Below, piece after piece: positions 28,988 to 45,766 of a DNA stretch of 56,966 bases; position 1 is the first letter of the stretch; the number at the start of each line of letters is the position of its first letter. The stretch lies in the NCBI GenBank assembly GCA_905210995.1, contig CAJLZE010000003.1:1-56966 (forward strand), written 5' to 3'. Source of the stretch: an uncultured Anaerotruncus sp. (GTDB taxonomy: Bacteria > Bacillota > Clostridia > Oscillospirales > CAG-272). The notes under the pieces were generated by a model that worked only from the letters and a program-made list of their open reading frames with translations, was not told the origin of the DNA and did not search any database. The position numbers were made by a program, and so were the translations under genes.

Positions 28988-30049
28988 TTATTCGTCTTTT
29001 TCGTCTGCGGGCGCACCGCCGCGCGGCTCTGCCGTGCTTTCGTACACCTTCAGCGTCGGGCAAAGGCTCACGCTCTGATAAGCGACCGTATGCTCGCCCT
29101 CCATACGCTTGCGCAGCAGCACCGCCGCCAGTTCGCCTATGTCGTTTGTGGGGCTTACCACGCTCGTAAGCGACGGGAACATATACTTTGAAGTCGGGTT
29201 ATCGTCAATGCCTATTATCGATATGTCCTCCGGAATACGCAGTCCCGCCTCTCTGATCGCACGCATCGCGCCGTAGGCGATATTGTCATACGCGGCAAAG
29301 ACCGCCGTGGGCGCTTCAGGCTCTGCGAGCAGCCGCTTCATTCCGATATAGCCGCACTCCTCGAATCTCTCTTCAAGACAAACTACATACCGGTCCGGCA
29401 GCTCAAGCCCGTGCTCGCGCATGGTGGAAATAAAGCTGTTCATACGCAGCGCGGTATTCTGCTCGCCGATGAAGGCGATGCGTCTGTGCCCGAGCTCTAT
29501 CAGATGGTTGAGCGCAAGCACAGCCCCCATCGTATGGTTTATACCTATGCTGTCGCAAAAATCAATGTTGTTGCCGGCGCAAACGAGCATAAAGGGCGTT
29601 CTCACCTTGCCGACGATACGCCGTATGTCGTTGAGATGCGAACTGTTTTCGGTGAGAAGAAATATACCCGACACACCGTCGCGCAGAAAGGCGCGTATGG
29701 CGTTTATCTCGCGGCGACGGTCGAATTCGGTCAAAACGATAACGGGACGGTACCCCTCATTGCGAATTTTTTCGCAGAAAGCACGCTGAATATCGTTGTA
29801 ATACTGGCTGGCAAGCTCGGGAAAGATCAAACCGACCGATTTTTCGGGCGTTACCTCTTCCCCCTCGGCTCTTGCTGCCGATTTTGTATCAGCCGAACGC
29901 AGCGCCGGAAGCACATATCCGACCTTTTCGGCAAGCTCGCGTATATTTGCCGCAGTTTTTGCGTTTATGTCGTTGCTGCCGCGCAGCGCCTTTGAAACCG
30001 TTGAAACATTGACGCCCGCAAGCCCGGCTATGTCCTTTAATGTTGCCAT
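28988..30049 (-). CDS. LacI-family transcriptional regulator
   Basis: N-terminal HTH ATLKDIAGLAGVNVSTVSKALRG plus a periplasmic-binding-protein-like core. 353 aa. Confidence 0.88.
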   Translation of the reverse strand: MATLKDIAGLAGVNVSTVSKALRGSNDINAKTAANIRELAEKVGYVLPALRSADTKSAARAEGEEVTPEKSVGLIFPELASQYYNDIQRAFCEKIRNEGYRPVIVLTEFDRRREINAIRAFLRDGVSGIFLLTENSSHLNDIRRIVGKVRTPFMLVCAGNNIDFCDSIGINHTMGAVLALNHLIELGHRRIAFIGEQNTALRMNSFISTMREHGLELPDRYVVCLEERFEECGYIGMKRLLAEPEAPTAVFAAYDNIAYGAMRAIREAGLRIPEDISIIGIDDNPTSKYMFPSLTSVVSPTNDIGELAAVLLRKRMEGEHTVAYQSVSLCPTLKVYESTAEPRGGAPADEKDE

Positions 30050-30057
30050 GTCGTCCT

Positions 30058-30071
30058 CTTTTTCGAAACTT
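30058..30071. promoter_or_regulatory. LacI-type operator half-perfect site upstream of the LacI gene
   Basis: CTTTTTC|GAAACTT. The right half is identical to the perfect palindrome at 45686-45699, with a central CG. It sits between the -10 and the RBS of the LacI gene. Confidence 0.4.
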
Positions 30072-30078
30072 TTAGTAT

Positions 30079-30107
30079 ATTATATCACACGCGACGAAGC
30101 TTGTCAA
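30079..30107 (-). promoter_or_regulatory. consensus sigma-A promoter of the LacI-family gene
   Basis: Minus-sense TTGACA (30102-30107), 17-nt spacer, TGaTATAAT (TATAAT at 30079-30084). Confidence 0.65.
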
Positions 30108-30140
30108 AAGATTTTCGACAAAACAGGCGAGATCAGGTGA

Positions 30141-30827
30141 TTATTTGTTCTTGATAAGCTCAAGCAGCGTGTGATCGCCGAAGGCGTTCTTCCAGTCGTT
30201 TGCAAAGCCGACTATCGAGGTGTCGGTCGTGGTGTGCTGAACGAGCTTTTTCATTACGTCCGCGCTCACCGTTGCGGCTCCGGCGCCCCCCAGAGCACAC
30301 TCAAGCACCTCGCGTGCGGTCTTGAAGCTCGCGGCAAGTATTTCGGTATTGCTTCCGGAGGCGGCAAGCAGCTCGGCTATCTCCGAGACCGTTCCGATGC
30401 CGTCGGCGCCGATATTTTCGAGACGGCTGACATACGGCGCGATATACGCCGCTCCCGCCTCGGCTGCAAGCAGAGCCTGATTGGCGCTGAGCACGGCAGT
30501 CATCGTCACACCGACGCCCTCGCCGCTCAGCTCGCGCGCCGCGCGAAGTCCGTCGGGCGTCGCAGGGATCTTAACAAATGTATTTTCGCCGAGCAGCGCG
30601 ACTATCGCGTGCCCCTCCTCGATCATTTTGTTCCACTCGGTCTCGGTCCCCTGGACGTGCAGCTCCTTGTCGCCGCCGATGATCTCTCTGATCTTCACAA
30701 GATGCGCCACTATATCGCCGCCCTCACGCGAAAGTATCGTGGGGTTGGTGGTCACACCGCAAATGGGAAAATAATCGTTGAAATATTTTATGTCATCAAG
30801 GTTTGCTGTATCAAGAATGAGTCTCAT
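30141..30827 (-). CDS. transaldolase-family protein (fructose-6-phosphate aldolase / TalC type)
   Basis: MRLILDTANLDDIK...GVTTNPTIL and the Schiff-base Lys context FVKIPAT. 228 aa. Confidence 0.82.
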   Translation of the reverse strand: MRLILDTANLDDIKYFNDYFPICGVTTNPTILSREGGDIVAHLVKIREIIGGDKELHVQGTETEWNKMIEEGHAIVALLGENTFVKIPATPDGLRAARELSGEGVGVTMTAVLSANQALLAAEAGAAYIAPYVSRLENIGADGIGTVSEIAELLAASGSNTEILAASFKTAREVLECALGGAGAATVSADVMKKLVQHTTTDTSIVGFANDWKNAFGDHTLLELIKNK

Positions 30828-31456
30828 TTCGATTCCCTTCCTTTGAGCTGAAGGTCGTAGTGAATGTCGTAAGCCTTTTCCTCATCGGTGAACTTGTGCA
30901 GGGTATTTATTACCTCCCCGCCCTTCCACTTGCGGTCGCCTACATCCTCGGTCGTGCCCATTACCGTCACATTGAGCTGACGGCGGCGAGCGCGTACCTG
31001 ATCCCAGTCGATAAAATAAACGTGTGCGAATTCACCGCCGTCAAGAACGCCGTCCTTGATGGTCATGGTCTCGCTTCTGCCGAAGAATACCGAGCGGAGG
31101 TGCCCGTCGGTGTTCATGCTCGTAAAGTCGCCGGGCTCGTCAACGTATCTGCCGAACTGAGAATGGATCGGTCCGGGGTGACGGTACTGGTGCTCCTCGC
31201 GGAAATCGGGAACGAGCTTGCGCATGATGTCAAGCAGATCGTGCTGAAGGTATTCGAGGTCAAAGCTGTCGATGTCGTGAGAGCACTCCTGTACCATGAC
31301 CGAGCAGGTGGTGTGGTGAGAGGCGATGCATACGGTACCGTTCTTTACACCGGACTCCTCAACGATCTCGCGGATCTCCTTTGACACATCGTGAAAGGTG
31401 GGTATCCACCCGCGCGACTGAAGCTCAAGCTCCTTCTGATATACTTTGAATTCCAT
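30824..31456 (-). CDS. YjbQ/UPF0047-family protein (extended)
   Basis: DVSKEIREIVEESGVKNGTVCIASHHTTCSVMVQE resembles the YjbQ signature. 210 aa, longer than typical. ATGA overlap with the downstream gene. Confidence 0.55.
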   Translation of the reverse strand: MEFKVYQKELELQSRGWIPTFHDVSKEIREIVEESGVKNGTVCIASHHTTCSVMVQECSHDIDSFDLEYLQHDLLDIMRKLVPDFREEHQYRHPGPIHSQFGRYVDEPGDFTSMNTDGHLRSVFFGRSETMTIKDGVLDGGEFAHVYFIDWDQVRARRRQLNVTVMGTTEDVGDRKWKGGEVINTLHKFTDEEKAYDIHYDLQLKGRESK

Positions 31457-31490
31457 GATTTTTTTCCTTTCTTGTGCCGATACGGCGGTT

Positions 31491-32093
31491 TTATTTACTG
31501 TTCAGACGCTTTCCGACCGCACCGTTCGGGTGTATGACGGCAAATTCGCGGCTGCTGTAATCAAGCTTTTCAATCAGTGCCGTTCCGAGAGCATCAAAAA
31601 CGGCTGAGGTGACGGCAAAGCTCGTCGTCCCCTGACAGTTGTCGCGGTCGCACTCGCGCGTGACCGAAATACGGAGAATGATATCCGAAAGCCTACCGAG
31701 CGTCGATCCCGGCTTTTCGGTGACAAGAATGACCGTTGCCCCCTTTGCGCGACAGATCTTTGCTATCGGCACGAGCTCGTCGGTCTCGCCTCCGCGGGAT
31801 GCCAGCATCATCACATCGCCGCCGCAGATATACCCAAGCCCGCCGTGCACCGCCTCGGAGGGCGAGATAAAACGCGCGGGACGTTCTATACAGCAGCAGA
31901 GATGCGCAAAGTGGCGGCAGGCGATGCCGGAGTGACCGCAGCCGGATGCCGCAATGCGCTCAGCCGAGGCAAGCACCGAAACCGCCTTTTCGAATTCGGC
32001 GCGGTCAAGCACTCCGGCGGTCGCACGCAGCGACTCCGCCTCTGTCTCAAATGCGGCATATGCCGCGTCAAGTATTTTATCGGTCCCGCTCAT
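31491..32093 (-). CDS. SIS-domain sugar-phosphate isomerase (KpsF/GutQ-like SIS without CBS pair)
   Basis: GCGHSGIACRHFAHL...SPSEAVHGGLGYI...LASRGGETDEL. The start at 32093 forms an ATGA overlap with the upstream stop. Confidence 0.7.
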   Translation of the reverse strand: MSGTDKILDAAYAAFETEAESLRATAGVLDRAEFEKAVSVLASAERIAASGCGHSGIACRHFAHLCCCIERPARFISPSEAVHGGLGYICGGDVMMLASRGGETDELVPIAKICRAKGATVILVTEKPGSTLGRLSDIILRISVTRECDRDNCQGTTSFAVTSAVFDALGTALIEKLDYSSREFAVIHPNGAVGKRLNSK

Positions 32094-32794
32094 TCCGCGT
32101 GCACCTCGTCCCATACACGCCTGAGCGTTGAGAGCATTGCGCGTGCCGCTGCCTCGGGATCCTTCGCCTTCATAACTCCGCTCGTGCAGCCGGTCGCAAG
32201 AGCACCGGCGCGGATGACGTTCGCAACATCGTCGGGCGTGGATATCCCCGCTCCCTGAAGCACCATAATACCCGGGTCGATGCGTCGCACAGCTTCAATA
32301 GTATCCTTAACATAGCCCATATCGCTCGCAACACCGGTACCGATAAGCTCGGTCGGCTCGGCGACGATAAGATTTGGAGACAGCTTTGCCACCGCTTCGA
32401 TCTCGGCAACACTGTCAGCACAAACGATAGTGGCAAGCCCTACCTCATCGGCGCGCGCTATGGTCTTTTCTATCTCTTCAAGCGTCAGCTTTTTCTCGGC
32501 ATGGTTGAGCATAACTCCGACGGCTCCCGCCTCCTTCACGGCTTCGGGCAGGACCGAACCGAGCCCGCGCCCGGGCGCGAGGCTGTCCATATGCTGCGCA
32601 TATACGTGAATGTGTTTTGTGTTCTCCGCGATCATGCGTATATCGGTATACTGCAGAGTAACGATAACGTCAAGGTCGAATTCTTCCGCAATGCGGTCGA
32701 TCTCAAGCGCAAGACGGAGCATACGCTCGCCCCACATGAAGCATTTGGGACCTATCTCAAAAAACGGAGCGCGGATCTTATAGTTTTTGTACAT
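32090..32794 (-). CDS. triose-phosphate isomerase family protein (archaeal-type TIM paralogue)
   Basis: 234 aa with MLNHAEKK (NH[S/A]E catalytic His context) and VAEPTELIGTG (catalytic Glu context), as in archaeal short TIMs. Confidence 0.75.
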   Translation of the reverse strand: MYKNYKIRAPFFEIGPKCFMWGERMLRLALEIDRIAEEFDLDVIVTLQYTDIRMIAENTKHIHVYAQHMDSLAPGRGLGSVLPEAVKEAGAVGVMLNHAEKKLTLEEIEKTIARADEVGLATIVCADSVAEIEAVAKLSPNLIVAEPTELIGTGVASDMGYVKDTIEAVRRIDPGIMVLQGAGISTPDDVANVIRAGALATGCTSGVMKAKDPEAAARAMLSTLRRVWDEVHAE

Positions 32795-32806
32795 CTTCTC
32801 CGCTCC

Positions 32807-34165
32807 TTACATTTCGAGCACTTCAATGCCGAGTATGCGGCAAAGATCGCGTATTGCGGCGCGGTTGTCGCCGAAGGTTATGATATAATGCTGGCAGGCA
32901 ACATGATCGGCAAAGCGCGGAACGTCGCGCAGCTCTATCTCAAGCGCCGAAAGCTGCGGCGCGGGCTGCGCCCAGCCGCACTCCTCCCACACGGGCGGCT
33001 TTTTGCCCTCACCGGGCAGCACGTGCATAACATATCTGCCGCCGGTATAAACAAGGCGCGACATGGTGAGCGTTCCGGTCTTTACCGGAGAAACGTTGAG
33101 AATACCCTCGCTCAGCAGCCCGAATGCAGCGGGAAGAACAGTGTATGTATCCCCGTCTACCATATCCGCGGCAACAAAATCGGGAACGCCCGCAAGCACA
33201 CTGTGCTCAAAGAACTCGTAAAACTCAAGGTATCCGGCAAGCTGTCCCGTCAGCTTGTGCATCATGAGCTGAGTGACAGCCCCCAAAGAATCGTTTTCGG
33301 GTATCGTCGTATAACCGTCCTCGGAAAGCAGCATGAATATCGGAGCGGGCGGGAAGCCGCACAGCTTTTTCATTCCGTCAACATCCTTAAGGGATATCGC
33401 GTGATAGTTTCTTTCCTTGGCGATCGACGCAACGGCGAGATAATACCCTGCCGCTTTTTTCATCGTCTCGGGGTTGGCGGGCTTGAGGAAGTTCCACTTC
33501 TTTATGCGTTCCTCTACCACCTTGTCCACGTCTGCCGGGTCAAGCGCACGGTATCTCTGCTCGACCTCAAGAAGCTCAAACGTCTCGATCTCAACACCGG
33601 TCTGCTTTTTGAGCGAAAGGCCGTCGTAGAGCGTGCCGTAAAGGTTCATATCGCGGTAACCCGCCATGCCTATCTTTTCGGAAAGAAGCTCTCCGGCAGC
33701 GACAGCGGCGCTGCAGAAGGATGCGACCTCGGCGGAACGTGTTTTCATGCCTATTATGTCGTAAACGTATCTGAAGCGATAGCCGAGCCCTTCGAACGTC
33801 GCGCGAAGACCGGCTGTGCCCGCCTGATCTGCGGTAGTAACGAGCCTGCCATCCTCATACCAACCGCAAAGCCCCCAAAGCACCATCGGAAGCTCACGGT
33901 AATGCTCGGTGATCTTCACGACCGCATGGGTGGGTATCCACCCGGCAATGCAAAGCACAAGTGCGTCAAAGCGCTCCTTTCCGAGAGCCTCAAGCGCCTC
34001 TCCGATCTGCTTCTCCTCCGGGTCGTCGGCAACCGGATAGACCTTTACGAGCTCAATTCCCTCGCCCTCAAGCGCTGCCGCTGCCGCGGCGCACTTTCTT
34101 ATCACAACATCGACCGGAGTATTTATTTCTCCGAATCCCACAAATCCGATCCTGCTCATTTTCAT
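32807..34165 (-). CDS. L-fucose/L-arabinose isomerase-family protein
   Basis: 452 aa. The overall look (MSRIGFVGFGEINTP..., C-terminal ...HVACQHYIITFGD) matches my memory of this family. No catalytic motif was verified. Confidence 0.5.
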   Translation of the reverse strand: MKMSRIGFVGFGEINTPVDVVIRKCAAAAAALEGEGIELVKVYPVADDPEEKQIGEALEALGKERFDALVLCIAGWIPTHAVVKITEHYRELPMVLWGLCGWYEDGRLVTTADQAGTAGLRATFEGLGYRFRYVYDIIGMKTRSAEVASFCSAAVAAGELLSEKIGMAGYRDMNLYGTLYDGLSLKKQTGVEIETFELLEVEQRYRALDPADVDKVVEERIKKWNFLKPANPETMKKAAGYYLAVASIAKERNYHAISLKDVDGMKKLCGFPPAPIFMLLSEDGYTTIPENDSLGAVTQLMMHKLTGQLAGYLEFYEFFEHSVLAGVPDFVAADMVDGDTYTVLPAAFGLLSEGILNVSPVKTGTLTMSRLVYTGGRYVMHVLPGEGKKPPVWEECGWAQPAPQLSALEIELRDVPRFADHVACQHYIITFGDNRAAIRDLCRILGIEVLEM

Positions 34166-34177: not shown

Positions 34178-35602
34178 TTATTTGTTGATAACACCGTCAA
34201 GCTCGCAAAAACGGCGATAAGCTGCCGAATAATCGGCGCCCGACGGAGCGTATTTTCCTTTTATCTTAACTGCGGCGCGCGCAGCCTCCGCAGCGCTGCC
34301 GTAAAGCCCTATGCCGACCGCGGCAAGCAGTGCCGAGCCGAGGCACGCCGTCTCTGATTCCTCAAGCGTACAAAGCTCCTTGCCGGTCACGTCTGCCTTT
34401 ATCTGCGCCCACAGCGGGCTTGACGCACCGCCGCCGGTTATGCGGATACCGTCTGCATCTATATTCACATATTCAAGCTCCTCGCGCAGCGTGAAAGCGA
34501 CAGCCTCCATTATGGCGCGCGCAAAATGCGCTCTTGTGTGCGCAAGACGCACGCCAGAAAATTCGGCTCCCACCGAAGGATTGTATTTCGGCATAGACGA
34601 GCCGCAAAAATACGGCAGCACGGTAAGCCCGTCACACCCGGGTGCGACCTTTTCGGCTTCCGCGTCAAGCTCACGGAACGAAAGCTCACTTGCAAAGTTG
34701 TTGCGGAACCACTTGAGCGACATTCCCGCAGTCGCCGACCAGAGAAGCAGGCAGTACTTTCCGTCCGCGTGCAGGTGGCACGGAACTATGCTGTCCGCTC
34801 TGTACGGAGGGATGCTGTCCGTGACCGCGCACACGGCAAGCGCCGTACCGGTCATTTCACTCACTCCGCCGGTGTCGGTCACGCCGACGCCGACCGCGCC
34901 GGCGATCTGGTCGAGCGCACCGCACACAACGGATATACCGTCATACTCTCCTGCCTTCTCCGCAGTGCGCAGCACGCGCGGGAGCTTTTTTTCGTCGACG
35001 CCGATAAAGTCAAGCATTTCGCGCCAGAAGCGGCGCTCTCTTATATCAAAATAAACCGAGGACGACTGTATCGTCGGCTCGGTGACAAATTCACCGGTAA
35101 GCCTGAAGAGTATAAAATCTTCAAGAAGGAATATCTTTTCGGTTTTTGCCCACACATCGGGGCGGTTATGCCTGAACCATAAAAGCTTTGAAGCGGGCCA
35201 CGACGCCGTTATCTCGGGCTGTCCCGTGACCTCGTAGACCGTTTTTTTGCCGAAACGGGATTCTATCTGCGCCGCCCCGTCCGCAGCACGGTTGTCGAGC
35301 CATACAACGGCGGGATAAAGCGGTTTTCCCTCTTCGTCGGCAAGTATCAGGGTCTCACCCTGAGTATCCACCGCAAGCGCGTGCGGCTTGCCGCATTCAC
35401 GCGACAGCTTCGCTATCGCCTCGCGGCACATTTCAACGTATTTTTCGGGATCGAATTCGACATACCCCGTCGCCGGGTCGGTGTCGAGCACATAGTCCTT
35501 GGTCACAACGCCGAGGCGTTTTCCGCTGCCGTCAAACTCGGCAGCCTTGAGTGAGGTCGTACCTATGTCGATCCCCATTATCCTGTGATCCGATAATTTC
35601 AT
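34178..35602 (-). CDS. FGGY-family carbohydrate kinase (xylulokinase-like)
   Basis: ATG at 35602 (ORF track extends to 35761). GIDIGTTSLKA phosphate-1 motif, DTQGETL, and C-terminal ITGGGASSPLWAQIKADV. Confidence 0.85.
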   Translation of the reverse strand: MKLSDHRIMGIDIGTTSLKAAEFDGSGKRLGVVTKDYVLDTDPATGYVEFDPEKYVEMCREAIAKLSRECGKPHALAVDTQGETLILADEEGKPLYPAVVWLDNRAADGAAQIESRFGKKTVYEVTGQPEITASWPASKLLWFRHNRPDVWAKTEKIFLLEDFILFRLTGEFVTEPTIQSSSVYFDIRERRFWREMLDFIGVDEKKLPRVLRTAEKAGEYDGISVVCGALDQIAGAVGVGVTDTGGVSEMTGTALAVCAVTDSIPPYRADSIVPCHLHADGKYCLLLWSATAGMSLKWFRNNFASELSFRELDAEAEKVAPGCDGLTVLPYFCGSSMPKYNPSVGAEFSGVRLAHTRAHFARAIMEAVAFTLREELEYVNIDADGIRITGGGASSPLWAQIKADVTGKELCTLEESETACLGSALLAAVGIGLYGSAAEAARAAVKIKGKYAPSGADYSAAYRRFCELDGVINK

Positions 35603-35663
35603 TTTATTTTGTTTTTTATCAACGGCAGGGTTGCCGCGCCGTGGCGCGGCAACCCGCAAAAGA

Positions 35664-37778: not shown

Positions 37779-39416
37779 TTATTTATCTCCCGTCGGCGGA
37801 CAGACACAACGGAGAGTTTCGTTATTGGTGTGATAGATCGCACGCAGCTCGTTCATGGCTTCAATGCAGCGCGCCGAGGCGGTGGGCTTGAAGTCACAGC
37901 CGAGAAGCTCGTGATCTATGACCGCGCGGAGATACATCATCCTCCACCTTGCAGTTCTGCGTATGCTCTCGGGCAGCTTGCGATCGTAAGCCGAAAGAAT
38001 TTCGTAAACATATTCGACATCCGAGGTATCGGAGATCGGGAATCTGTATGCATTGTAATCCGTACCGCGCCACAGACCTGTCTCGCTGCGCTCAATGGCA
38101 TCGACAAGGTCGGTGTCGCCGCAGCAAAATTCAAATTTCGCATATCTGCGCACCGCGTCATGCGAAATAAGCGTCTCGCCGCTGTAATACGAGAGCATGA
38201 CGAACTTGTTGATATCCTCGAATATGCCCTCTGAGTAGGGGTAACCGCCGTGATAGAGGTGACCGCTGCCCATGTTAGTGCGGTCAAGGAAGCGGCAGAG
38301 CGGATTTGTGCCGAAGCCGCCCCACGGGCGGCACCCGTGCATGCTTATTTCGGGGAAATCGATAAACTTCACGCCCTTCGGCACACCGTCGCGCTTTATG
38401 CACTCGGGGAGCACGCCGCCGTGGAAGAAGGACATGATGTAATCAAAGCCGCTGACCTCGCCCGCGGTGAGCTTTTTCCAGAAAGCATCCCACTCGCCGG
38501 GGATAAAACGGTCGAAATACCACGTCGAAAGTATAATCTTCGTGCCGGGCAGCACCTCATTCGTAAGTTTTACGAATTCGGGAAGTATGCGGAGATATCC
38601 GTTCGAGCCCCACGGCGCACAGTCGGGGCAGGTGCAGCCGCCCTGATCGTAAGGCCAGTAGCATATATAGTCCGGCTGTACGTCTGCAAACGCCTCAAAT
38701 ACCTCGCGTCTTTCACGCAGTATCTCCTCCATGCCGCCGGGCTTTGAGGGGCATATCTCACGGTTGTATATGCCGTCCGGTTTTGTGTGATATCCGTTTT
38801 CGACAAGGAACGTCGCGCGCAGCTCAACGGGCGACGAATCAAAGCCCTCGTTCGAGAGCATGGTCATCGACGCCTTCATGCCGATCTGCTTTGCATATTT
38901 CATAAACGCCTTGAGACGGTTTATGAGCTCCACGGATTCGGGCTGGTCGACCGATCTGAAATGGTGCATATCGTACCAGACGAGCAGCGCATTGCAGCCG
39001 CGCAGTGCAAGGTCCTCAATGACCTCATAGACCTCCTCTACCGGCGCATTGTGATAAAAATTGTGGAAGTGCGTTGCAAAATACATACCGCGCAGGGGCT
39101 TTGCGGGAGTATGATCTACCTTTTTTGACGAAGGAACGAAACCGCCCTCACCGTCGAAGCGCGAATCGACCAGATAACGTCCGACAGCGGCATGGAGGGC
39201 GCAGTCGTTCGCTGCGGTAAAGGCAACGGTATTGCCGTCGGGAACGACAGTGTACCTGTCGTTTTCAAGTGCCGCATCCACCGCAAGAGTGAAGGTGTAA
39301 TCCGCATTGTCTCCGAGACGGCAGCAACGCTCCCCGAGACGGCGCTCGAGCGTGTGCGAAAGAACCGTGAAGCTCTCCGGTCCCATCGAGATATTTTCAA
39401 GTCTGAATGTTGTCAT
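37779..39416 (-). CDS. uncharacterised glycoside-hydrolase-like protein (N-terminal alpha/beta domain + TIM-barrel-like core + helical C-domain), paralogue A
   Basis: 545 aa with no signal peptide. Conserved with paralogue B: RGMYxAxHFxNFxHxAP, EICPxxPGGM, YDxGGCTCxxC (CTCPDC at 38619-38636), ILSTWxFDR, DFPEISM, GGxPYSEG. Confidence 0.45.
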   Translation of the reverse strand: MTTFRLENISMGPESFTVLSHTLERRLGERCCRLGDNADYTFTLAVDAALENDRYTVVPDGNTVAFTAANDCALHAAVGRYLVDSRFDGEGGFVPSSKKVDHTPAKPLRGMYFATHFHNFYHNAPVEEVYEVIEDLALRGCNALLVWYDMHHFRSVDQPESVELINRLKAFMKYAKQIGMKASMTMLSNEGFDSSPVELRATFLVENGYHTKPDGIYNREICPSKPGGMEEILRERREVFEAFADVQPDYICYWPYDQGGCTCPDCAPWGSNGYLRILPEFVKLTNEVLPGTKIILSTWYFDRFIPGEWDAFWKKLTAGEVSGFDYIMSFFHGGVLPECIKRDGVPKGVKFIDFPEISMHGCRPWGGFGTNPLCRFLDRTNMGSGHLYHGGYPYSEGIFEDINKFVMLSYYSGETLISHDAVRRYAKFEFCCGDTDLVDAIERSETGLWRGTDYNAYRFPISDTSDVEYVYEILSAYDRKLPESIRRTARWRMMYLRAVIDHELLGCDFKPTASARCIEAMNELRAIYHTNNETLRCVCPPTGDK

Positions 39417-39431: not shown

Positions 39432-41108
39432 TCATCTTCCGAGCGGAGGGCAGACCGCCGGCTGGATCCTTGTATCATACGCGTGGTAGAGCGCCCAAAG
39501 CTCACGGAAACATTTTTGCGCCCTCGCGGAATTCATCGGAATGAAATCGTGAGTATAAAGCTCGTAGTCGATCACGGCACGCAGATATATTATCCTCCAA
39601 CGCGGGTCGCGCTTTGCCGTATCGTTCATTGCCGCATCGGCTTCGGTAACGAGCCTGTACGCCTCGCGTATCGCAGCCGGAAAATGCGGCGTTACCCGCA
39701 GCCTGCCGTCCGGCATGGTCTCGACCTTGCGCCAGAGAGTGATCTCAAGCAGCTCCACGGCGCGCAGAAGAGGCTCCGGATCGTTTATCCCGAAATAAAA
39801 GCGCACATAATCCCTTACCGCATCGGCGGTATCCGCATGAGCGCCGCTGTAATGCGACATGCAGCAGAATTCGTTTATGTTCTCCCAGAAGCCCTCCGAA
39901 TACGGGAAGCCCCCGTCAAGAACATCGCCGACCGACGAAAAGAAATTATCGAGCCTCATCGTAAGCGGGTTTGCGCCGTAGCCGCCCCACGGCTTGCCGC
40001 CCCACATACTGATCTCGGGGAAATCTATCACCGAGCGCCCGTCGGGAGCACCGTGCTCTGCCGTGAGCGGCATAAACTGACCGTCGCCGTACACCGCCAT
40101 GACGTATTCCGCCCACGGGTATTTACCAGCCGAAAGATTTTCGTAAAGACGCTTTCCTTCATCTCGCAGATGTCTGTCGAAATGCCATGTGGAAAGTATC
40201 AGCTTTGCATCGGGGAAATATTCGGAAAGCAAAGGCTTTACCGACTCCTCATATACCTTGATAAAGCCGTTTTCGCTCCATCGCGAGCAGGCGTCACAGG
40301 TGCAGCCGCCCTCGTCATACGCCCAGTAAGCAAAATACTTTACCGGCACATCCGAAAACAGCTCAAAGAACTCACGGTGACAGCGGCGTATCTCATCCAT
40401 GCCGCCGGGCAGATTGGGGCATATCTCCTTGTGAAGCTCGGCATAATTCGGGGTTATGTATTCGCCGCGCATATCCCACGGCGCCGCTATATCCTCGGAA
40501 CGGTCGAGAAAACCCGTGTTTGAGAAAAGTATCAGCGCGGGAGCTATACCAAGCTCGGCGGCGCAGGCGAATATCTTCTTGAGTCTATCTGCCGTTTCAA
40601 ACGCCTCGGGGGATGTGAAAGATCTGTAATGCTGAGGCGCAAGGCAGAGCATGAGGGTGTTGCATCCCCAAAGCGCCAGGTCCTCGATAAACGGCGTTAC
40701 CTCCTCCATCGGAGCGGCGTGCCAGAAGTTGTAGAAATGAGATGCAAGATACATACCGCGCACCGAGCTTTTCATCTCATGTTCTATCGGCAGCTCAGGC
40801 GGCACAAAGCCGCCGCCGAAATCAAAGCTGCCGCTCATGAAGAAACGCCCGAGCGCCGCATATACGGTGCAGAGATCACAGACGGTCACGAGAGCGCCGC
40901 CCTTTCCGTCGTCAATTATCGAGTAGCTATCCTTTCGGTTTTCCGTTTCGCCGTCCTCGTGCGGAACGATATCGAGCGTGACGGAATATCCGCCGTCGCC
41001 GAGAGCGCATCCGCGGTGCTCGAGGATTCGTACGACGGTCTTCTTTATACGCTCAAATTCCTTTTCCGGGATATCGGCGTTTTTCAAAGCAAGAACGAAC
41101 ATTTTCAC
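39432..41108 (-). CDS. uncharacterised glycoside-hydrolase-like protein, paralogue B
   Basis: 558 aa with no signal peptide. Same conserved blocks as paralogue A (CTCDAC at 40287-40304). Confidence 0.45.
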   Translation of the reverse strand: MKMFVLALKNADIPEKEFERIKKTVVRILEHRGCALGDGGYSVTLDIVPHEDGETENRKDSYSIIDDGKGGALVTVCDLCTVYAALGRFFMSGSFDFGGGFVPPELPIEHEMKSSVRGMYLASHFYNFWHAAPMEEVTPFIEDLALWGCNTLMLCLAPQHYRSFTSPEAFETADRLKKIFACAAELGIAPALILFSNTGFLDRSEDIAAPWDMRGEYITPNYAELHKEICPNLPGGMDEIRRCHREFFELFSDVPVKYFAYWAYDEGGCTCDACSRWSENGFIKVYEESVKPLLSEYFPDAKLILSTWHFDRHLRDEGKRLYENLSAGKYPWAEYVMAVYGDGQFMPLTAEHGAPDGRSVIDFPEISMWGGKPWGGYGANPLTMRLDNFFSSVGDVLDGGFPYSEGFWENINEFCCMSHYSGAHADTADAVRDYVRFYFGINDPEPLLRAVELLEITLWRKVETMPDGRLRVTPHFPAAIREAYRLVTEADAAMNDTAKRDPRWRIIYLRAVIDYELYTHDFIPMNSARAQKCFRELWALYHAYDTRIQPAVCPPLGR

Positions 41109-41109
41109 C

Positions 41110-42354
41110 TCACAGCTTTATATCCGCTTCGTCATCAAGTACGCGCGACGTGCCCGGAACATACGGGATATCGAGCTCGGTTATCCGGTTTGCAGCGTTG
41201 AGGATCTCCTTTACATGCAGCTCGTTTGTAAGATGCGCATTGGCTCTGTCGCCGAGGTAAACCGTAAGCGCCTCGTCCGAGGTCGTATATGTCGCCACCT
41301 CGGGATCGATCGCCGTGTAGACATCGACCGTTCCGCCCTTGCCGCCGTGATGAGCCGTCTGGCAGAAGTCCGATTTCAGGTACGAACCGTACATTGCGGT
41401 AAGGATGTCGTTTTCGATTATGCACGCATCGGCAAGGAACATCATACCGTACCCCGCCTCGCGCACACGGAAAACGACCGAGGTGTTGTTCCAGTCGCGC
41501 GTGTCTTTCCATGAGCGGAAGGACGTGCGAAAGTCCTCCTGCGTTGCAAGAAATTCTATCTCCGCGCCGCCTATTTGCCGCACCTCTCCCGTGTGTATTT
41601 TCGTGACCTTTCCCTCACGGTTGAATGCGCGAAAATTCGCTATCGAGCGCTGACGCAGAAAATATTCGTTCTTTTCGAACCAATCGATGCAGTCGCGCTC
41701 GCCGGGATAGTTGCATATCAGCTCGTCTATGCGCACCTCGGGGCAGTCGTAGTATTTTTCGGTGAATTTTATAAACCCGCCGGTGTGGTCGTTGTGCGTA
41801 TGCGTGATGATCCACGCCGCTACGACTATATTTTCGGGATCGGGAGCCTGTTTTTTAAGCACGTTCATTATGCCGTCGGCAAAGCCTTCGTTTGCCACGC
41901 CGCCGTCTATAACGATGAATCTGCCGTCCCCGAGCCGTAAAACATAGCACATAAGCCCGCAGTTGACCGGCACGCCGCGGAAATAATTATTCTGCATGAA
42001 CGTTCTGCCTATCTGAGTGAGCAGCGGCTTGCAGATCTTTTCACCGCAGCAGTCCGCAGCGTTGTCGCTCATGTTTTCGGACGGCTCGACGATAACTCTG
42101 AATGTCGAATCGAACGGCGTAAAATATGTCGTGACACCGCATGAGCCTTTGCGGTATGCGGCAAAAAGGTTGCCCGCAGCGGCGCGCTCCCAAAGGAGCG
42201 CAAAGCCCGCCTCGGTAAGTTTTCCGCAATATCCGCGCCATGCATCGGCAGATGAATGCTCAACTATTATCTGCCATGCGCCGTCGCCGTCGGCGACGAC
42301 CTCCGCCCCCTCGGGATAACCCGGTATGGCGGAAAGTATTTTGTTCTGTATCAT
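41110..42354 (-). CDS. MBL-fold metallo-hydrolase (ComEC-C-terminal-like), cytoplasmic paralogue
   Basis: 414 aa with no signal peptide. VIDGG...ITHTHNDHTGGF (HxHxDH) and ...CQTAHHGG. Confidence 0.7.
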   Translation of the reverse strand: MIQNKILSAIPGYPEGAEVVADGDGAWQIIVEHSSADAWRGYCGKLTEAGFALLWERAAAGNLFAAYRKGSCGVTTYFTPFDSTFRVIVEPSENMSDNAADCCGEKICKPLLTQIGRTFMQNNYFRGVPVNCGLMCYVLRLGDGRFIVIDGGVANEGFADGIMNVLKKQAPDPENIVVAAWIITHTHNDHTGGFIKFTEKYYDCPEVRIDELICNYPGERDCIDWFEKNEYFLRQRSIANFRAFNREGKVTKIHTGEVRQIGGAEIEFLATQEDFRTSFRSWKDTRDWNNTSVVFRVREAGYGMMFLADACIIENDILTAMYGSYLKSDFCQTAHHGGKGGTVDVYTAIDPEVATYTTSDEALTVYLGDRANAHLTNELHVKEILNAANRITELDIPYVPGTSRVLDDEADIKL

Positions 42355-42370
42355 TTGTTGCCTCGTTCGG

Positions 42371-44140
42371 TCAATATACGTTTCCCTTATCCGTGACCGC
42401 GGAATTTCCCGGTGTGTAAGGGAGCGGGAACTCGGTTATGCGGCAGGCGCAGTTGATGACTTCCTTTACATGGAGCTTTCTGAGCAGGTGAGCGTTGTGC
42501 GCATCTTTTTTGTAAAGCTCGAACGCCTCGTCGGATGTCGTGAACAGCGCCACTGTCGGATCTATCGCATTGTAGACTGCTGCCGTTCCGCCCTCGCCGC
42601 CGTGATGCGCGACCTGGCATATATCCGATTTCATATATCCGCCCCACATCTTGACCGCGATCCCGTTTGAATCCACCTGCGAGTCGCCGAGGAACATCAG
42701 CTTCTGCCCCGCGATCGTAACGCGGAAAATAAGCGAGGTGTTGTTCCAGAGCTTCGTATCGGCAAACGTGCGCTTCGAGGTGTAGTAATCCTCGGGCGTG
42801 TAGAGAAATTCGACCCCCGCACCGCCTATATTGCGTGTCTCGCCGGTGTGTATCTTTGTCAGCTTCGCCTTGGGGTAATAAACCTTGAAGTTGTTGAGCG
42901 TCTTTTTACGGTTGTTGAGCTCATGGTCGGGGCTGGCGTCGCAGGTATCCTCGCTCGGGAAATTGAGGATGAGCTCGTCAAGCGTCACCCGCCTGCCATA
43001 GGTCTCCGAAAACTTGTTGAAGCCGCCCGTGTGGTCGCTGTGCGTGTGTGTAATGATCCATGCCGCGATGTGTATATGGGAAGGATCGGGTGCCTGAGAC
43101 TTCATGGTATCCATAATGCCGGCAGCAAAGCCCTCTGTCGCAACTCCGCCGTCAATGACGATGAAACTGCCGTTCTCGAGCCGAAGCACAAAGCACATAA
43201 GTCCGCAATTGACGGGCACGCCGCGGTACGAGCCGGTCTTTGAGAAGGTCCTGCCTATCATCGTAAGGCGCGCATCGCATTTTTTCTCCACCGTCGCGGT
43301 ATCGGCACTGCGGTCGCTCATATTGGACGCAGGCTCGGATATTATACGGACGGTGTTGTTGAACGCCGTAAAGTAGACTGTGACTCCTACGTCACCCTTT
43401 TTGTACTGAGCAAAATTATTGGAGTTTTCGGTGCGGTCAAAGGTCATCTCAAAGCCCGCTTCCGCCAGTCTTGCGCAGTATGACGCAAACGCCTCGGCAG
43501 AGCTTTTTTCGATCACGTTCTCGTATGCCTTGTCGCCTACCGAATATATAATGACCTTATTTGCACCTTCGAAAGTGGGAATGGCATCAAGCGTTTCGCT
43601 GACGCTGCCCGTTATCGCTATCGGCTGCGCGAATTCGGCGCCGCCCTCAAGCAGATCCGTAAACCGGCGCACGGCGGTCGCGAGAGAGGTGTCGTTCCAG
43701 CCGAAAACAACGATCTTGTGACCGACGGTCCTCACGGCATACCCGCCGTAACCGGTCTCGGCTGCCACCTGCCGCGACTCGGGGTATGAGGTCTGCCCGA
43801 CGAGTATTTCAAAGCTCTCGGATGAATGTTCCTCGCCCGGCATGACGAAATCGGTGCCGATCTCGGGATTGCCGCCCGAATATTTTCTCAGCGCAGAGCT
43901 TATCTCCATCGCCGCTTCCTGCTCGGCGGCAGTGCCCTCGTCGGGTCTCACGGTGCGGTAGTTTACGGTGCTTCCCTCCCAAAGAGCGGGAAAGCTCACC
44001 GCTTCGGGCGCGGTCGTGACGGCATCCGATGTGCCGTCGCCCGTGCCGTCATTTTTGCATGCGGCAAAAAGCGGCAAAAGCATCAGCGCGCAAAGGCAGA
44101 CCGCAAGCGCGCGCAATACAAACGGTGCTGTTTTTTTCAT
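42371..44140 (-). CDS. MBL-fold metallo-hydrolase lipoprotein, extracellular paralogue with an extra N-terminal domain
   Basis: Lipobox LLPLFAAC. VIDGG...ITHTHSDHTGGF and ...CQVAHHGG. About 175 extra N-terminal residues relative to the cytoplasmic copy. Confidence 0.7.
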   Translation of the reverse strand: MKKTAPFVLRALAVCLCALMLLPLFAACKNDGTGDGTSDAVTTAPEAVSFPALWEGSTVNYRTVRPDEGTAAEQEAAMEISSALRKYSGGNPEIGTDFVMPGEEHSSESFEILVGQTSYPESRQVAAETGYGGYAVRTVGHKIVVFGWNDTSLATAVRRFTDLLEGGAEFAQPIAITGSVSETLDAIPTFEGANKVIIYSVGDKAYENVIEKSSAEAFASYCARLAEAGFEMTFDRTENSNNFAQYKKGDVGVTVYFTAFNNTVRIISEPASNMSDRSADTATVEKKCDARLTMIGRTFSKTGSYRGVPVNCGLMCFVLRLENGSFIVIDGGVATEGFAAGIMDTMKSQAPDPSHIHIAAWIITHTHSDHTGGFNKFSETYGRRVTLDELILNFPSEDTCDASPDHELNNRKKTLNNFKVYYPKAKLTKIHTGETRNIGGAGVEFLYTPEDYYTSKRTFADTKLWNNTSLIFRVTIAGQKLMFLGDSQVDSNGIAVKMWGGYMKSDICQVAHHGGEGGTAAVYNAIDPTVALFTTSDEAFELYKKDAHNAHLLRKLHVKEVINCACRITEFPLPYTPGNSAVTDKGNVY

Positions 44141-44146
44141 TTCGTT

Positions 44147-45628
44147 TTATTTCTTCATGCCGGAAATGGCTGCTTCGATATCCGACTGGAATTTCTTCTT
44201 ATACATATCGAAGGAGGATTTGATGTTGGGGTTTTGGTTCGCATGGAGCGTATTGAGCAGACCGACGCAGTTGCCGAAGTTGTTGGCAAGCGCAATGTCC
44301 ACCTGTCCCTTTTCAAACACCATATCTATCATCTTGATATCCGTCGGGTTGTTGGCGCACTTGTAATGAAGGATATTGCCGATAAGGGCATTAAGAAGCT
44401 TTTCGTGCGAAACGGCAAACATCGTTTCAAGCACAAGAGCGGTCCTCTCGAAATCGGAGGTCGTGGAGGGAATAACAAGCCCTTCGACATAGCTGTAGAC
44501 CGGAGCAACGTAATCCTGCTGATCTTCGCTGTACTTGGGAACTATAACAAGACCGTACTCAAAGTCAAGGTTGCGCACAGACTGCACCGAATATGTTGCG
44601 GTCGCCTGGAAAAGCGCACGCCCCTCGTTGAAAACAGCAGCATAGTTATCGGATGCGGCGCCCGAGGAGAAGCCCTCATATCTGTTGGGACGAACGCCCG
44701 CGATGGCTACGGTGGGATCGATGACGAATTTGTTGAGGAAGTCGGTATAAACGTTTATGTAGCGCTCGCTGAGCCCTTCATATACCGGATAACCGCTGTC
44801 GTCGTTGTGCGTAAGTGTTTCGCCCGAGCTTATCATAAGGTTGCGGAGGTGGTTCACGTGTCCGGTAAAGCCGAGCACATCGGTCGAAACATCATAAACA
44901 CCGTCGGCATTGTAATCCTTGGCGGCGATCTTCATCATCGAGTACATCTTCTCATAGGTCCATGTGCCCGCGGTCACGCAGTCATAGGGGCTTTCAAGAT
45001 TGTTTTCGCTGATAAGCTGCTTGTTGAACGCGTAAATATAAAAGCCGCTGTAATAGTTGAGGTGTCCGTCACCGAATATAACATAGCGCTTTGTGCCGAT
45101 GTTCACGGTGTCGTTAAAGTTTTTTGCCCACCACGGGTTTTCAAGATTGATCCCGTCGACCTCGTTTATATCAACGACCTCGCCTCTCAGAAAGGACTGG
45201 AGAGCGGTGCCCGTCGGGAGCTGGCAGACGTCGTAAAGGTGAGTCTGCGTGCTTACCGCAGTGGCAATATCTTTGGAAATATTCTGCGAGTTCACCTCGG
45301 AGAAGGTTATATTGAGTCGGTCCTGAACGATATTCTGACGGCTGTAAACAATGTCGTCGAGCACGTTCTTTCCCTGCTCCTCAACGGTCAGCGCATCATA
45401 CGACCATGTTGTGGGGCGGGTGAGTATCTTGAACTCATACTTGTCATAATTCATTACGGGCAGCGCCTCGTATGCCTCTGTGGTCTCTGCCACGGGAGCG
45501 GTCGTGCCGCCGGCTACGGATGTGCCGTCTCCGTTTCCGTCATTCTTGCTGCACGCCGCAAGCGACGCGAGACAAAGCACGGCAAGCGCAAGGCACAAAA
45601 GCCTTTTGAATGTTTTTGAGTTTTTCAT
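44147..45628 (-). CDS. extracellular solute-binding lipoprotein (large LplA-type ABC SBP)
   Basis: ATG at 45628 follows GGAGGATC. Lipobox LASLAAC. About 490 aa, overall SBP family-1-like. Confidence 0.65.
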   Translation of the reverse strand: MKNSKTFKRLLCLALAVLCLASLAACSKNDGNGDGTSVAGGTTAPVAETTEAYEALPVMNYDKYEFKILTRPTTWSYDALTVEEQGKNVLDDIVYSRQNIVQDRLNITFSEVNSQNISKDIATAVSTQTHLYDVCQLPTGTALQSFLRGEVVDINEVDGINLENPWWAKNFNDTVNIGTKRYVIFGDGHLNYYSGFYIYAFNKQLISENNLESPYDCVTAGTWTYEKMYSMMKIAAKDYNADGVYDVSTDVLGFTGHVNHLRNLMISSGETLTHNDDSGYPVYEGLSERYINVYTDFLNKFVIDPTVAIAGVRPNRYEGFSSGAASDNYAAVFNEGRALFQATATYSVQSVRNLDFEYGLVIVPKYSEDQQDYVAPVYSYVEGLVIPSTTSDFERTALVLETMFAVSHEKLLNALIGNILHYKCANNPTDIKMIDMVFEKGQVDIALANNFGNCVGLLNTLHANQNPNIKSSFDMYKKKFQSDIEAAISGMKK

Positions 45629-45685
45629 TTGATCCTCCAGACGATTATGTGAGATCATGCAGATGTGTCCTTTTTTGGATTGAAA

Positions 45686-45699
45686 AAGTTTCGAAACTT
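45686..45699. promoter_or_regulatory. perfect 14-bp palindrome, candidate LacI-family operator
   Basis: AAGTTTC|GAAACTT with central CG, 58 nt upstream of the SBP start codon and downstream of the candidate promoter at 45738-45766. Confidence 0.5.
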
Positions 45700-45737
45700 A
45701 TTGATGCCCGCTCGGCACTTTCTGCATTTCTGACATA

Positions 45738-45766
45738 ATGATATCACACGCCATCCCGTTTATCAA
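45738..45766 (-). promoter_or_regulatory. candidate promoter of the SBP-led operon
   Basis: Minus-sense TTGATA (45761-45766), 17 nt, TGaTATCAT (TATCAT at 45738-45743). Confidence 0.4.

Follow-up and report, generated by a model that had tools for sequence, protein, structure and literature searches.

A putative LacI-controlled glycan utilisation locus built largely from uncharacterised protein families in an uncultured gut Clostridia genome

The closest described relatives of the system considered here are the polysaccharide utilisation loci (PULs) of Gram-positive colonic Firmicutes, which one account (PMC5320581) outlines as a regulator combined with a solute-binding protein (SBP)/ATP-binding cassette (ABC) transporter and carbohydrate-active enzymes (CAZymes). 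The locus analysed here lies in a 57-kb stretch of DNA from an uncultured human-gut Clostridia (56,966 nt, hereafter the window). In common with the PULs of that outline, it combines a regulator of LacI type with a lipoprotein binder at the surface, enzymes of glycosidase fold and downstream sugar catabolism, all in one co-regulated cluster, whereas it encodes no permease or ATPase and no protein matching a Pfam model for a CAZy glycoside hydrolase (GH), adds phosphodiesterase-like and amidase-like enzymes, and has catabolic genes that are themselves uncharacterised. If a PUL is taken to be a co-localised regulator, transporter and at least one CAZyme, then the locus falls outside the strict definition, as it holds a regulator and an SBP-like protein without a membrane transporter, and the CBM9 modules are its only sequence-defined CAZy modules. 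Despite this, the system would work like a Gram-positive PUL. With a probability of roughly 0.6, it is a LacI-repressed regulon of 15 genes that harvests a decorated glycan or glycoconjugate. The initial annotation of the window had likewise proposed a utilisation system of uncharacterised families for such a substrate; that proposal is supported, although it was incomplete regarding the ceramidase-like hydrolase CerL, the type of aldolase and the permeases.

The catabolic genes resemble parts of two further described systems. In the synthetic KdsD-FsaA routes ('glycoptimus', PMC6900487; SAGA, PMC9947464 and PMC13550131), a SIS protein of the arabinose-5-phosphate isomerase (API) type and an aldolase of the fructose-6-phosphate aldolase (FSA) type interconvert ribulose-5-phosphate with glycolaldehyde and glyceraldehyde-3-phosphate (GAP). 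KdsD and FsaA carry out this conversion in vitro and in vivo, and the engineered pathway rescues transketolase-less E. coli on xylose (PMC6900487). These routes were engineered from E. coli enzymes, whereas the SIS/FSA pairing in the window is natural and operon-encoded, with a putative arabinose-5-phosphate activity, and is joined to an isomerase, a kinase, a paralogue of triosephosphate isomerase (TIM) and a YjbQ protein. The sulfo-TAL (SFT) pathway for sulfoquinovose (BmSF-TAL, 8bc3) has in common with the locus a FucI-like isomerase of about 450 aa and a small Tal/FSA-family enzyme (107 bits against 8bc3), whereas the locus has an aldolase of FSA type and a kinase, and lacks both a sulfolactaldehyde dehydrogenase/reductase and a sulfoquinovosidase. 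Literature searches found no locus combining a ceramidase with an isomerase and a kinase, nor one combining FSA, FGGY, FucI, SIS and TIM proteins. As far as these searches reach, no locus of the same composition has been described, and none of the unknowns falls in a characterised family.

The proposed mechanism has four parts. Firstly, the substrate would be held outside the cell by the SBP-like lipoprotein together with the pair of membrane-anchored CBM9-like proteins, while a lipoprotein with a metallo-beta-lactamase (MBL) fold would remove a phosphodiester-linked (or ester-linked) decoration. Secondly, the oligosaccharide would be imported by a transporter encoded outside the locus. Thirdly, in the cytoplasm, the paralogues UnkA and UnkB, a second MBL protein and CerL would dismantle the oligosaccharide, with CerL deacylating the released sugar or a small sugar conjugate. 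Fourthly, the free aldose would be converted to a ketose by a FucI/AraA/SftI-like isomerase and then phosphorylated by an FGGY kinase (both with predicted substrates), the SIS isomerase, and perhaps YjbQ, would rearrange the sugar phosphate, the FSA-type class I aldolase would cleave it to GAP and a small unphosphorylated carbonyl compound, and the TIM paralogue would equilibrate the triose phosphates. The LacI repressor would leave its AGTTTCGAAACT-type operators on binding an inducer, presumably a pathway intermediate.

Organisation and regulation of the locus

All 14 minus-strand open reading frames (ORFs) initially listed between 28988 and 45628 are present, in the order first given. Their spacing is as tight as claimed, with gaps of 1-61 nt after trimming and ATGA overlaps at the TIM/SIS and YjbQ/Fsa junctions; three ORF starts need such trimming (SBP, 45628, with the ribosome-binding site GGAGGA; CBM9b, 37753; FGGY, 35602), and 91 nt then separates lacI from the upstream Fsa gene. 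The three paralogous pairs are also borne out, with UnkA and UnkB 39% identical over their full length, the MBL proteins 55% identical over 408 aa, and the two CBM9 proteins 38% identical. Pfam cut-offs are passed for LacI, TAL_FSA, UPF0047/YjbQ, SIS, TIM, FGGY_N and FGGY_C, and CBM9_1 (twice), while the Lactamase_B cut-off is passed by both MBL proteins, and that of Lactamase_B_2 by the lipoprotein as well. The GC content of 0.53-0.57 across the locus is the same as that of its surroundings, and hence there is no sign of foreign-island origin.

Consensus scans identified three promoters. That of lacI, correctly predicted as its own, is a perfect TTGACA-17-TATAAT with the TG of an extended -10 (30107-30079), whereas the promoter of the SBP gene (minus strand, 45766-45738) matches the consensus at 10/12 positions, and that of cerL (plus strand, 45848-45876) at 11/12. 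Each is accompanied by an operator-like site. A perfect 14-bp palindrome, AAGTTTCGAAACTT, lies at 45686-45699 between the -10 hexamer and the start codon of the SBP gene; a second TTTCGAAA core is found in the divergent region at 45824-45831; and, in the lacI promoter region, AAGTTTCGAAAAAG (30058-30071) follows the -10 hexamer and precedes the ribosome-binding site. The core TTTCGAAA occurs three times in the 57 kb, and all three copies are in the promoter regions of this system, which total about 400 nt; simple arithmetic puts the chance of such a placement at roughly 1e-6. A AGTTTCGAAACT-like motif, with at most two mismatches, recurs at equivalent intergenic positions in ten related loci (L001, L007, L009, L013, L016, L018, L020, L035, L047 and L058, these being names for homologous GTDB loci), and is kept in L047 although UnkA there is only 45% identical. 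Because the cores are restricted to the three promoter regions and recur in related loci, we infer that the 15 genes belong to a single LacI regulon with three transcription units, namely SBP to Fsa, the autoregulated lacI, and the divergent cerL. The NCBIfam models nearest to the repressor are RbsR/PurR-like, and all score below their cut-offs.

The boundaries of the system consequently differ from those first drawn. The ceramidase-like gene had been treated as a mere flank, yet it shares the operator motif and the divergent promoter region, and elsewhere adjoins the catabolic block. The GH36 gene beyond it is indeed a flank, kept in close relatives only and lying behind a strong bidirectional terminator; its candidacy as a core component was rejected on these two grounds. 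The reported lack of an ABC permease or ATPase is correct for the locus itself but does not extend to the wider group, as the homologous L047, L058 and L073 have two ABC permeases and an SBP_bac_1 protein.

The association of these genes was assessed in 79 GTDB loci with an UnkA relative, leaving out five near-identical loci. The partners were an MBL/EEP lipoprotein (19 loci), an SBP-like protein (13), CerL (12), LacI (12), the isomerase (11) and FGGY (11). Close relatives, from human gut metagenomes including those of the Hadza, have the same locus and flanks, with one CBM9 gene rather than the two here. In distant Bacillota (for example L009, L011-L013, L016, L018, L020, L035, L046, L047, L058 and L073), UnkA homologues of 43-59% identity again occur with LacI, SBP, MBL lipoproteins, CerL, CBM9 and catabolic parts. 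Other neighbours include GH39-like, GH5-like, GH127, GH78, GH31, CE4, BD-FAE and GDSL esterase genes, along with genes for M20 amidohydrolases, sulfatases and a Y_phosphatase3 protein. Two Chloroflexota loci, L055 and L076, each have UnkA within about 8 kb of both a Fucose_iso_C protein and a homologue of the FGGY kinase (32% identical in L055), and a Fucose_iso_C protein adjoins UnkA in the Phycisphaerae locus L054; this link is weaker, as the isomerases are only remotely similar to that of the window.

These comparisons also bear on whether the surface and hydrolase genes are a unit unrelated to the sugar-catabolic operon, the two having become co-oriented by chance. Each block does stand alone elsewhere, and a hairpin separates them in the window. 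Nevertheless, a chance juxtaposition is quite improbable: the blocks co-occur in otherwise non-syntenic Bacillota loci (L012, L046, L047, L058, L073), they are tightly spaced with no terminator-plus-promoter pair between them, and their operator is common to cerL, which in other genomes belongs to the catabolic block. The hairpin itself, TTGCCGCGCC-ACG-GCGCGGCAA, is GC-rich and without a U-tract, and lies at 35630-35651 between the stop codon of CBM9a and the start of the kinase gene. It may be a processing site or a partial terminator, setting the levels of the surface and hydrolase genes differently from those of the catabolic genes.

Surface proteins, MBL hydrolases and the UnkA family

The translations contain the lipoboxes LAAC, in the SBP-like protein, and FAAC, in the MBL lipoprotein, while CBM9a and CBM9b each have a signal peptide and a C-terminal membrane anchor, with a Pro/Thr linker in CBM9a. 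The SBP-like lipoprotein has no Pfam match, leaving SBP_bac_1 and SBP_bac_8 unmatched, and no adjacent permeases; TIGR03850 matches weakly (E 0.0047), and the profile of its family weakly matches binding proteins for maltodextrin and arabino-oligosaccharides (E 0.002-0.03, with 2xd2 and 6rjy at 0.002-0.006). Comparison of this genome with its closest relatives shows a much faster divergence of the proteins exposed at the surface than of those in the cytoplasm: identities to L001 are 70% for the SBP, 68% for the MBL lipoprotein and 62% for CBM9, against 85-99% for the remaining proteins.

The AlphaFold (AF2) model of the MBL lipoprotein (pLDDT 91.4) has an MBL domain with the teichoic-acid phosphorylcholine esterase Pce (2bib, 1wra) and the nuclease domain of ComEC (9ic4) as its nearest structures, followed by an arylsulfatase, while its N-domain matches the N-domains of GH20, GH84 and GH138 enzymes in structure searches. 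The matches to Pce and ComEC have E-values of 3e-13 to 3e-11, TM-scores of 0.63-0.74 on the target and identities of 13-17%. Superfamily membership is evident from the passed Lactamase_B cut-off of both proteins, the modelled fold, and the HxHxDH motif that is common to these structural neighbours, with H365, H367, D369 and H370 invariant or nearly so in the family. In contrast to Pce/CbpE of S. pneumoniae, the lipoprotein bears a lipobox, its N-domain is GH20b-like and is followed by a small alpha/beta domain, and a Pfam scan shows no choline-binding repeats; given the absence of these repeats and an identity to Pce of 14-17%, membership of the Pce/CbpE family is not indicated. In the loci L021-L053, a lipoprotein that clusters with this family carries an Exo_endo_phos (EEP) domain and is without HxHxDH, and this form lies directly upstream of an UnkA homologue in L026, L029, L032 and L053. 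Hence it looks as though two unrelated phosphoesterase folds have been placed on one N-terminal scaffold, and this swap is the main argument for a shared activity in phosphodiester hydrolysis. The MBL lipoprotein is therefore a putative phosphodiesterase. The original suggestion that the MBL proteins supply de-esterifying steps fits these data, as they look like hydrolases of esters or phosphodiesters.

The resemblance to a pneumococcal teichoic-acid esterase raises the alternative that the locus recycles a wall glycopolymer, teichoic-acid-like or a secondary cell-wall polymer, of the cell itself or a neighbour rather than foraging, such that a Pce-like surface esterase would trim phosphodiester decorations and the cytoplasmic enzymes would salvage the fragments. 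The replacement of MBL by the EEP phosphoesterase in relatives agrees with this, as do the amidase, GDSL esterase, CE4 and M20 neighbours, which are typical of envelope turnover, and the faster divergence of the surface proteins. Yet wall recycling is unlikely given that the system is patchily distributed with a variable copy number (1-3 UnkA genes), that UnkA is fused to or found beside the plant-type GH43, GH127, GH39 and GH78, and that nutrient-uptake systems are typically built in this way, with an SBP and a LacI repressor that responds to the substrate.

Neither UnkA nor UnkB has a Pfam, NCBIfam or PDB sequence match, whether searched as single sequences or with a 30-sequence profile. A word-indexed search found at least 1179 homologues, all unnamed or 'hypothetical', and the family comprises 997 clusters at 50% identity. 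Across the GTDB species representatives, 433 loci hold a relative of UnkA; the 80 with the best matches come from Clostridia, Chloroflexota, Planctomycetota, Verrucomicrobiota, Lentisphaerota, Armatimonadota and Gemmatimonadaceae. The AF2 model of UnkA (pLDDT 94.9, pTM 0.95) starts with an alpha/beta domain, continues with a (beta/alpha)8 barrel and ends in a bundle of helices. Foldseek matches it to GH20 (GcnA, GH20C), GH89 (NAGLU), GH84, GH115 and GH138 enzymes with E-values of about 1e-14 and 9-14% identity, the best by TMq being the GH89 NAGLU structure 4xwh (0.64). The same three-domain fold is thus common to UnkA and to GcnA (GH20, 2epl), NAGLU (4xwh), CpGH84A (GH84, 6pv4) and a GH115 enzyme (4zmh), at TMq values of 0.5-0.64, whereas UnkA differs from these families in its identity of only about 10-14%, in the lack of a sequence-model match, and in four invariant cysteines.

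The residues invariant across the family include R109, H116, N142, H152, N189, E220, D257, E356, E396 and E400. The four cysteines, C222, C261, C263 and C266, form a cluster that suggests a structural metal site; we know of no metal site of this type in GH20, GH84, GH89 or GH115. Membership of GH20 in particular is not indicated: the Glyco_hydro_20 model is unmatched by UnkA and UnkB (no Pfam match at E<=0.1), and the D-E pair is absent after strand 4 of UnkA (250-254), where W254, Y256 and D257 are invariant and Q258 nearly so. Faint matches are limited to the N-domain model Glyco_hydro_20b in 3/30 family members and NAGLU_N in 2/30. A GH89 enzyme would be expected to have two catalytic Glu, and the UnkA family has invariant glutamates at E220, E356, E396 and E400. 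Beta-GalNAc-ases of the DUF4091/GH123 type (PMC11087588) were considered and rejected because they are built differently, their N-terminal domain being a beta-sandwich and their motif DE, and a literature search for new GH20/GH89-like families found no characterised counterpart of UnkA. Both proteins lack a signal peptide. Fusions within the family join it to GH3, GH43, an alpha/beta-hydrolase region resembling acetyl-xylan esterases, ConA-like lectin domains and a GNAT domain. We conclude that UnkA and UnkB belong to an unclassified family and are predicted to act as exo-glycosidases in the cytoplasm. The depolymerising role first attributed to these barrel proteins accordingly has a confidently modelled glycosidase fold behind it, and a putative activity.

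A second unannotated cytoplasmic family, Unk655, has about 655 aa and a faint GH5/Cellulase signal, and adjoins the isomerase and/or CerL. Its genes are at 2270-4249 in L073, 7097-9061 in L086, 6097-8061 in L087 and 4399-6375 in L088, and its proteins are 48-53% identical between loci, with the exception of the near-identical L086/L087 pair. Unk655 may be an alternative glycosidase releasing the same sugar.

CerL and the catabolic module

CerL shares a homologous catalytic domain with the neutral ceramidases. A profile of 11 CerL homologues matches the enzymes of P. aeruginosa (2zws, 1.4e-11) and human (4wgk, 1.7e-10), and aligns their HTH(T/S) and G(D/N)xSP motifs, although CerL does not match Pfam PF04734 at 1e-3 and is recorded as 'faint' or 'weak' in precomputed tables. 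Unlike these ceramidases, CerL is cytoplasmic, with a signal peptide in none of the 11 homologues, is only about 470 aa long without the C-terminal domain, and is found in a context of soluble sugar catabolism rather than lipid metabolism. In L084 and L089, a CerL homologue (31% identical at about 97% coverage in L084) lies directly upstream of Iso-FGGY-TIM-SIS-YjbQ-Fsa; in L085, a homologue of 33% identity precedes an M20 peptidase and then Iso-TIM-SIS-YjbQ-FGGY-Fsa; and in L088 the homologue is about 4.6 kb upstream of Iso in the same gene string. The UnkA, MBL and SBP genes are absent from L084, L085 and L089. On this gene-neighbourhood evidence, CerL is part of the catabolic module. It would most plausibly be a deacylase acting on a small soluble sugar conjugate.

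The gene string of L088 (2862-19350) runs GH78, CE4, BD-FAE esterase, CerL, Unk655 and GH31, then Iso-FGGY-TIM-YjbQ-SIS-CBM9, and continues downstream with a GlcD-like FAD oxidase and an Fe-S protein, a class II aldolase, DUF89 and PfkB, without an Fsa gene. A transporter of the EamA family is directly 3' of Fsa in L084 (15517-16392) and L089 (14478-15395), and may export a by-product.

A ceramidase homologue encoded alongside an MBL or EEP phosphodiesterase, the latter fold including sphingomyelinases, would also suit a system degrading glycosphingolipids or inositol phosphoceramides, whether the glycosyl inositol phosphoceramides of plants and fungi or the sphingolipids of Bacteroides. The phosphodiesterase would then cut the head group, the GH89/GH115-like enzymes would remove the sugars, in keeping with the relationship of the UnkA fold to alpha-GlcNAc-ases and alpha-glucuronidases, and CerL would cut the ceramide. 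This is very improbable, however, as the 11 homologues are all without signal peptides, CerL heads an operon of enzymes catabolising soluble sugars, the locus has no genes for inositol or uronate catabolism, and the literature on inositol-phosphoceramide degradation by gut bacteria yielded no such locus.

The remaining catabolic enzymes can be assigned to families more readily than to substrates. The isomerase scores below the cut-offs of AraA_central (21 bits against 24, 4e-4) and Fucose_iso_C (17.6 against 29.3, 3e-3), aligns end to end with SftI at 37.5 bits (cut-off 700, 1e-9), and has no PDB sequence match; some orthologues pass Fucose_iso_C in precomputed tables. By these similarities it is a putative member of the FucI/AraA/SftI superfamily, with its specificity unassigned, and its 3869 homologues are mostly from metagenome-assembled genomes of gut and rumen Clostridia. 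Both Pfam domains of the FGGY kinase are well above cut-off, its best equivalog is XylB (296.6 bits, cut-off 380), and it is equidistant from the structures of GlpK, GntK and XylB. The TIM paralogue exceeds the PRK04302 cut-off (204.7 bits against 132), and FFEIGPK, NHAEK and AEPTELIGTG are kept in 8/8 of the orthologues examined; these motifs would supply the catalytic Lys, His and Glu, while the substrate-binding Asn that usually stands two residues ahead of the Lys would be a Gly here. The SIS protein is a single domain without CBS domains that scores 105.7 bits (3e-30) against the kpsF model, below its cut-off of 203.7. Its best PDB match is the uncharacterised SIS protein 3fxa (1e-40), followed by the API-type 5uqi, 3etn and 2xhz, and its GCGHSG motif corresponds to GVGKSG or GMGKAG in API-type structures, the Lys being replaced by His here and by Thr in 3fxa.

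The aldolase had been labelled Fsa/Tal, of which the family is right, but the enzyme is specifically of FSA type and not a transaldolase. In PDB alignments its ..HVQ.. and ..APYV.. are like those of the FSA entries 9lkp and 9v4b, while the transaldolase 1vpx has ..AEV.. and ..SPFV..; hence Gln replaces Glu at the catalytic acid position, and Tyr replaces Phe near the Schiff-base Lys. Its score against the NCBIfam model fsa_talC_mipB is 209.7, below the cut-off of 246. A transaldolase, and with it a pathway resembling sulfo-TAL, was therefore rejected, both for these residues and for the SftI score of the isomerase, which is far below cut-off. YjbQ is the most conserved protein of the block, at 99, 95, 82 and 85% identity in L001, L006, L046 and L047, compared with 90, 83, 62 and 46% for the isomerase. 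Literature searches for the function of YjbQ/UPF0047 found no characterised counterpart. The protein carries a C-terminal extension of about 45 aa past the Pfam domain.

A tentative preference can be given to a pentose route, in which a pentose would pass through pentulose, pentulose-5-phosphate, ribulose-5-phosphate and arabinose-5-phosphate to glycolaldehyde and GAP. This route is preferred because every family but YjbQ is given a reaction of a kind known for it, because it parallels the engineered KdsD-FsaA pathway (PMC6900487), because the SIS protein matches API-type structures and kpsF while the kinase scores best against XylB, and because the partners of UnkA are of arabinan/xylan type.

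If the released sugar were instead a hexose or an N-acyl-hexosamine, then the same system would operate with different steps: CerL would deacylate an amino sugar, the isomerase would form a ketohexose, with loss of ammonia in the case of an amino sugar, the kinase would form the 6-phosphate, SIS and YjbQ would set the stereochemistry of fructose-6-phosphate, and FSA would release dihydroxyacetone and GAP. Such a substrate is somewhat unlikely, but several observations point towards it. GH20, GH84 and GH89, to which the UnkA fold is related, are all families active on N-acetylhexosaminides; CerL is homologous to amidases, and M20 amidohydrolases recur near the module; fructose-6-phosphate is the canonical substrate of FSA; and L088 lacks Fsa and has, just downstream, PfkB and a class II aldolase of the fructose- or tagatose-bisphosphate type, which is the standard means of splitting a ketohexose-6-phosphate. 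Against these, UnkA has neither the context of the GH20 Asp-Glu pair nor a sequence-model match to GH20, GH84 or GH89, there is no two-SIS protein of deaminase type, fructose-6-phosphate needs no private aldolase and TIM, and the kinase is nearest to pentulose and glycerol kinases. The GNAT domain fused to one UnkA-family member, a further point in favour, is limited to that protein and may reflect two genes merged in gene calling.

Several points weigh against the glycan-harvesting regulon and its pentose route. Firstly, most loci with UnkA relatives have none of these partners, and the catabolic block occurs without UnkA in L084, L085 and L089; therefore the modules are separable. Secondly, the locus encodes no permease, and the SBP call is the weakest of its family assignments. 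Thirdly, the fusions and neighbours of UnkA point to plant arabinan or xylan, with which a phosphodiesterase is at odds. Fourthly, the arabinose-5-phosphate step is hypothetical, given that the closest structure to the SIS protein is uncharacterised and that the Lys of GxGKSG has become His, and L088, with its downstream aldolase, PfkB and DUF89, would fit a ketohexose-6-phosphate intermediate equally well.

The glycan-harvesting regulon is of a familiar kind, being a repressor-controlled utilisation cluster in a gut Firmicute, yet almost every part belongs to an uncharacterised family, while the set is conserved and the CerL-Iso-FGGY-TIM-SIS-YjbQ-Fsa module recurs as a unit. Taken jointly, the locus would provide both a new GH family, with a GH20/GH89-like fold and a four-Cys cluster, and a natural FSA-dependent aldose pathway widespread in gut Clostridia, in which a ceramidase-like deacylase, FucI-like isomerase, FGGY kinase, SIS, YjbQ and FSA lead to GAP and glycolaldehyde, probably from a pentose via arabinose-5-phosphate; that both are right is rather doubtful. 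If true, it would give the first physiological roles for FSA, YjbQ/UPF0047 and bacterial cytoplasmic 'ceramidases', and pathways that have to date existed only by design would have an equivalent in nature. Working out the system could identify the glycan, whether of dietary, host or microbial origin, on which an uncultured and poorly known branch of the gut microbiota of humans (Hadza included) and ruminants feeds.

Feature coordinates and neighbouring genes

Table 1. Features of the locus and its boundaries, with positions in the window.
Feature	Position	Strand	Basis or remark
Terminator-like hairpin 3' of lacI	28806..28828	-	10-bp stem + T-run
LacI-family repressor	28988..30049	-	LacI HTH + Peripla_BP_3 + Peripla_BP_1
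lacI promoter and operator-like site	30058..30107	-	
FSA-type class I aldolase	30141..30827	-	TAL_FSA 164 bits
YjbQ/UPF0047 protein, 210 aa	30824..31456	-	PF01894 88.8 bits
Single-SIS sugar-phosphate isomerase (putative)	31491..32114 (likely start 32093)	-	SIS 65 bits
Archaeal-type TIM paralogue	32090..32794	-	NCBIfam PRK04302
FucI/AraA/SftI-like aldose-ketose isomerase	32807..34165	-	weak model matches
FGGY sugar kinase, unassigned subfamily	34178..35602	-	FGGY_N + FGGY_C
CBM9-like surface protein a	35664..36632	-	CBM9_1 76.5 bits
CBM9-like surface protein b	36692..37753	-	CBM9_1 66.7 bits
UnkA, cytoplasmic putative exo-glycosidase	37779..39416	-	AF2 model + Foldseek
UnkB, UnkA paralogue	39432..41108	-	39% identity, full length
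Cytoplasmic MBL-fold hydrolase, short form	41110..42354	-	Lactamase_B 33 bits; THTHNDH motif
MBL surface lipoprotein (GH20b-like N-domain, small alpha/beta domain, MBL domain)	42371..44140	-	lipobox
SBP-like lipoprotein, orphan	44147..45628	-	lipobox
Divergent control region	45629..45940	.	two promoters + operator-like sites
CerL, cytoplasmic neutral-ceramidase-like Zn hydrolase, putative deacylase	45941..47356	+	
Bidirectional terminator closing the system	47355..47400	.	20-bp stem, 12 GC pairs, T-runs on both strands
GH36 gene, convergent to cerL	47406..49616	-	

An ABC transporter resembling PotABCD is encoded 6 kb from the locus (19112-23188), and comprises an ATPase with TOBE_2, two permeases and an SBP_bac_6/8 protein. 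L086 has an orthologous transporter, of 54-74% identity, at a distance of 5 kb from its isomerase and Unk655 genes. The type of the transporter in the window (best SBP model SBP_bac_6) suggests that this is synteny, or it may be the missing importer. The genes between this transporter and the locus (23204-28782) encode a LiaF-like protein, a response regulator of OmpR type, a histidine kinase, an ABC ATPase and an FtsX permease of 685 aa, which together look like a module for sensing and detoxifying peptide antibiotics that is unrelated to the locus. ARAGORN called a tRNA-Arg(tcg) at 49298-49376, inside the GH36 coding region; it was not called by Rfam and is probably a false positive. Two segments of the window, 12001-14000 and 54001-56000, have a clearly lower GC content of 0.45-0.46, against about 0.55 otherwise.

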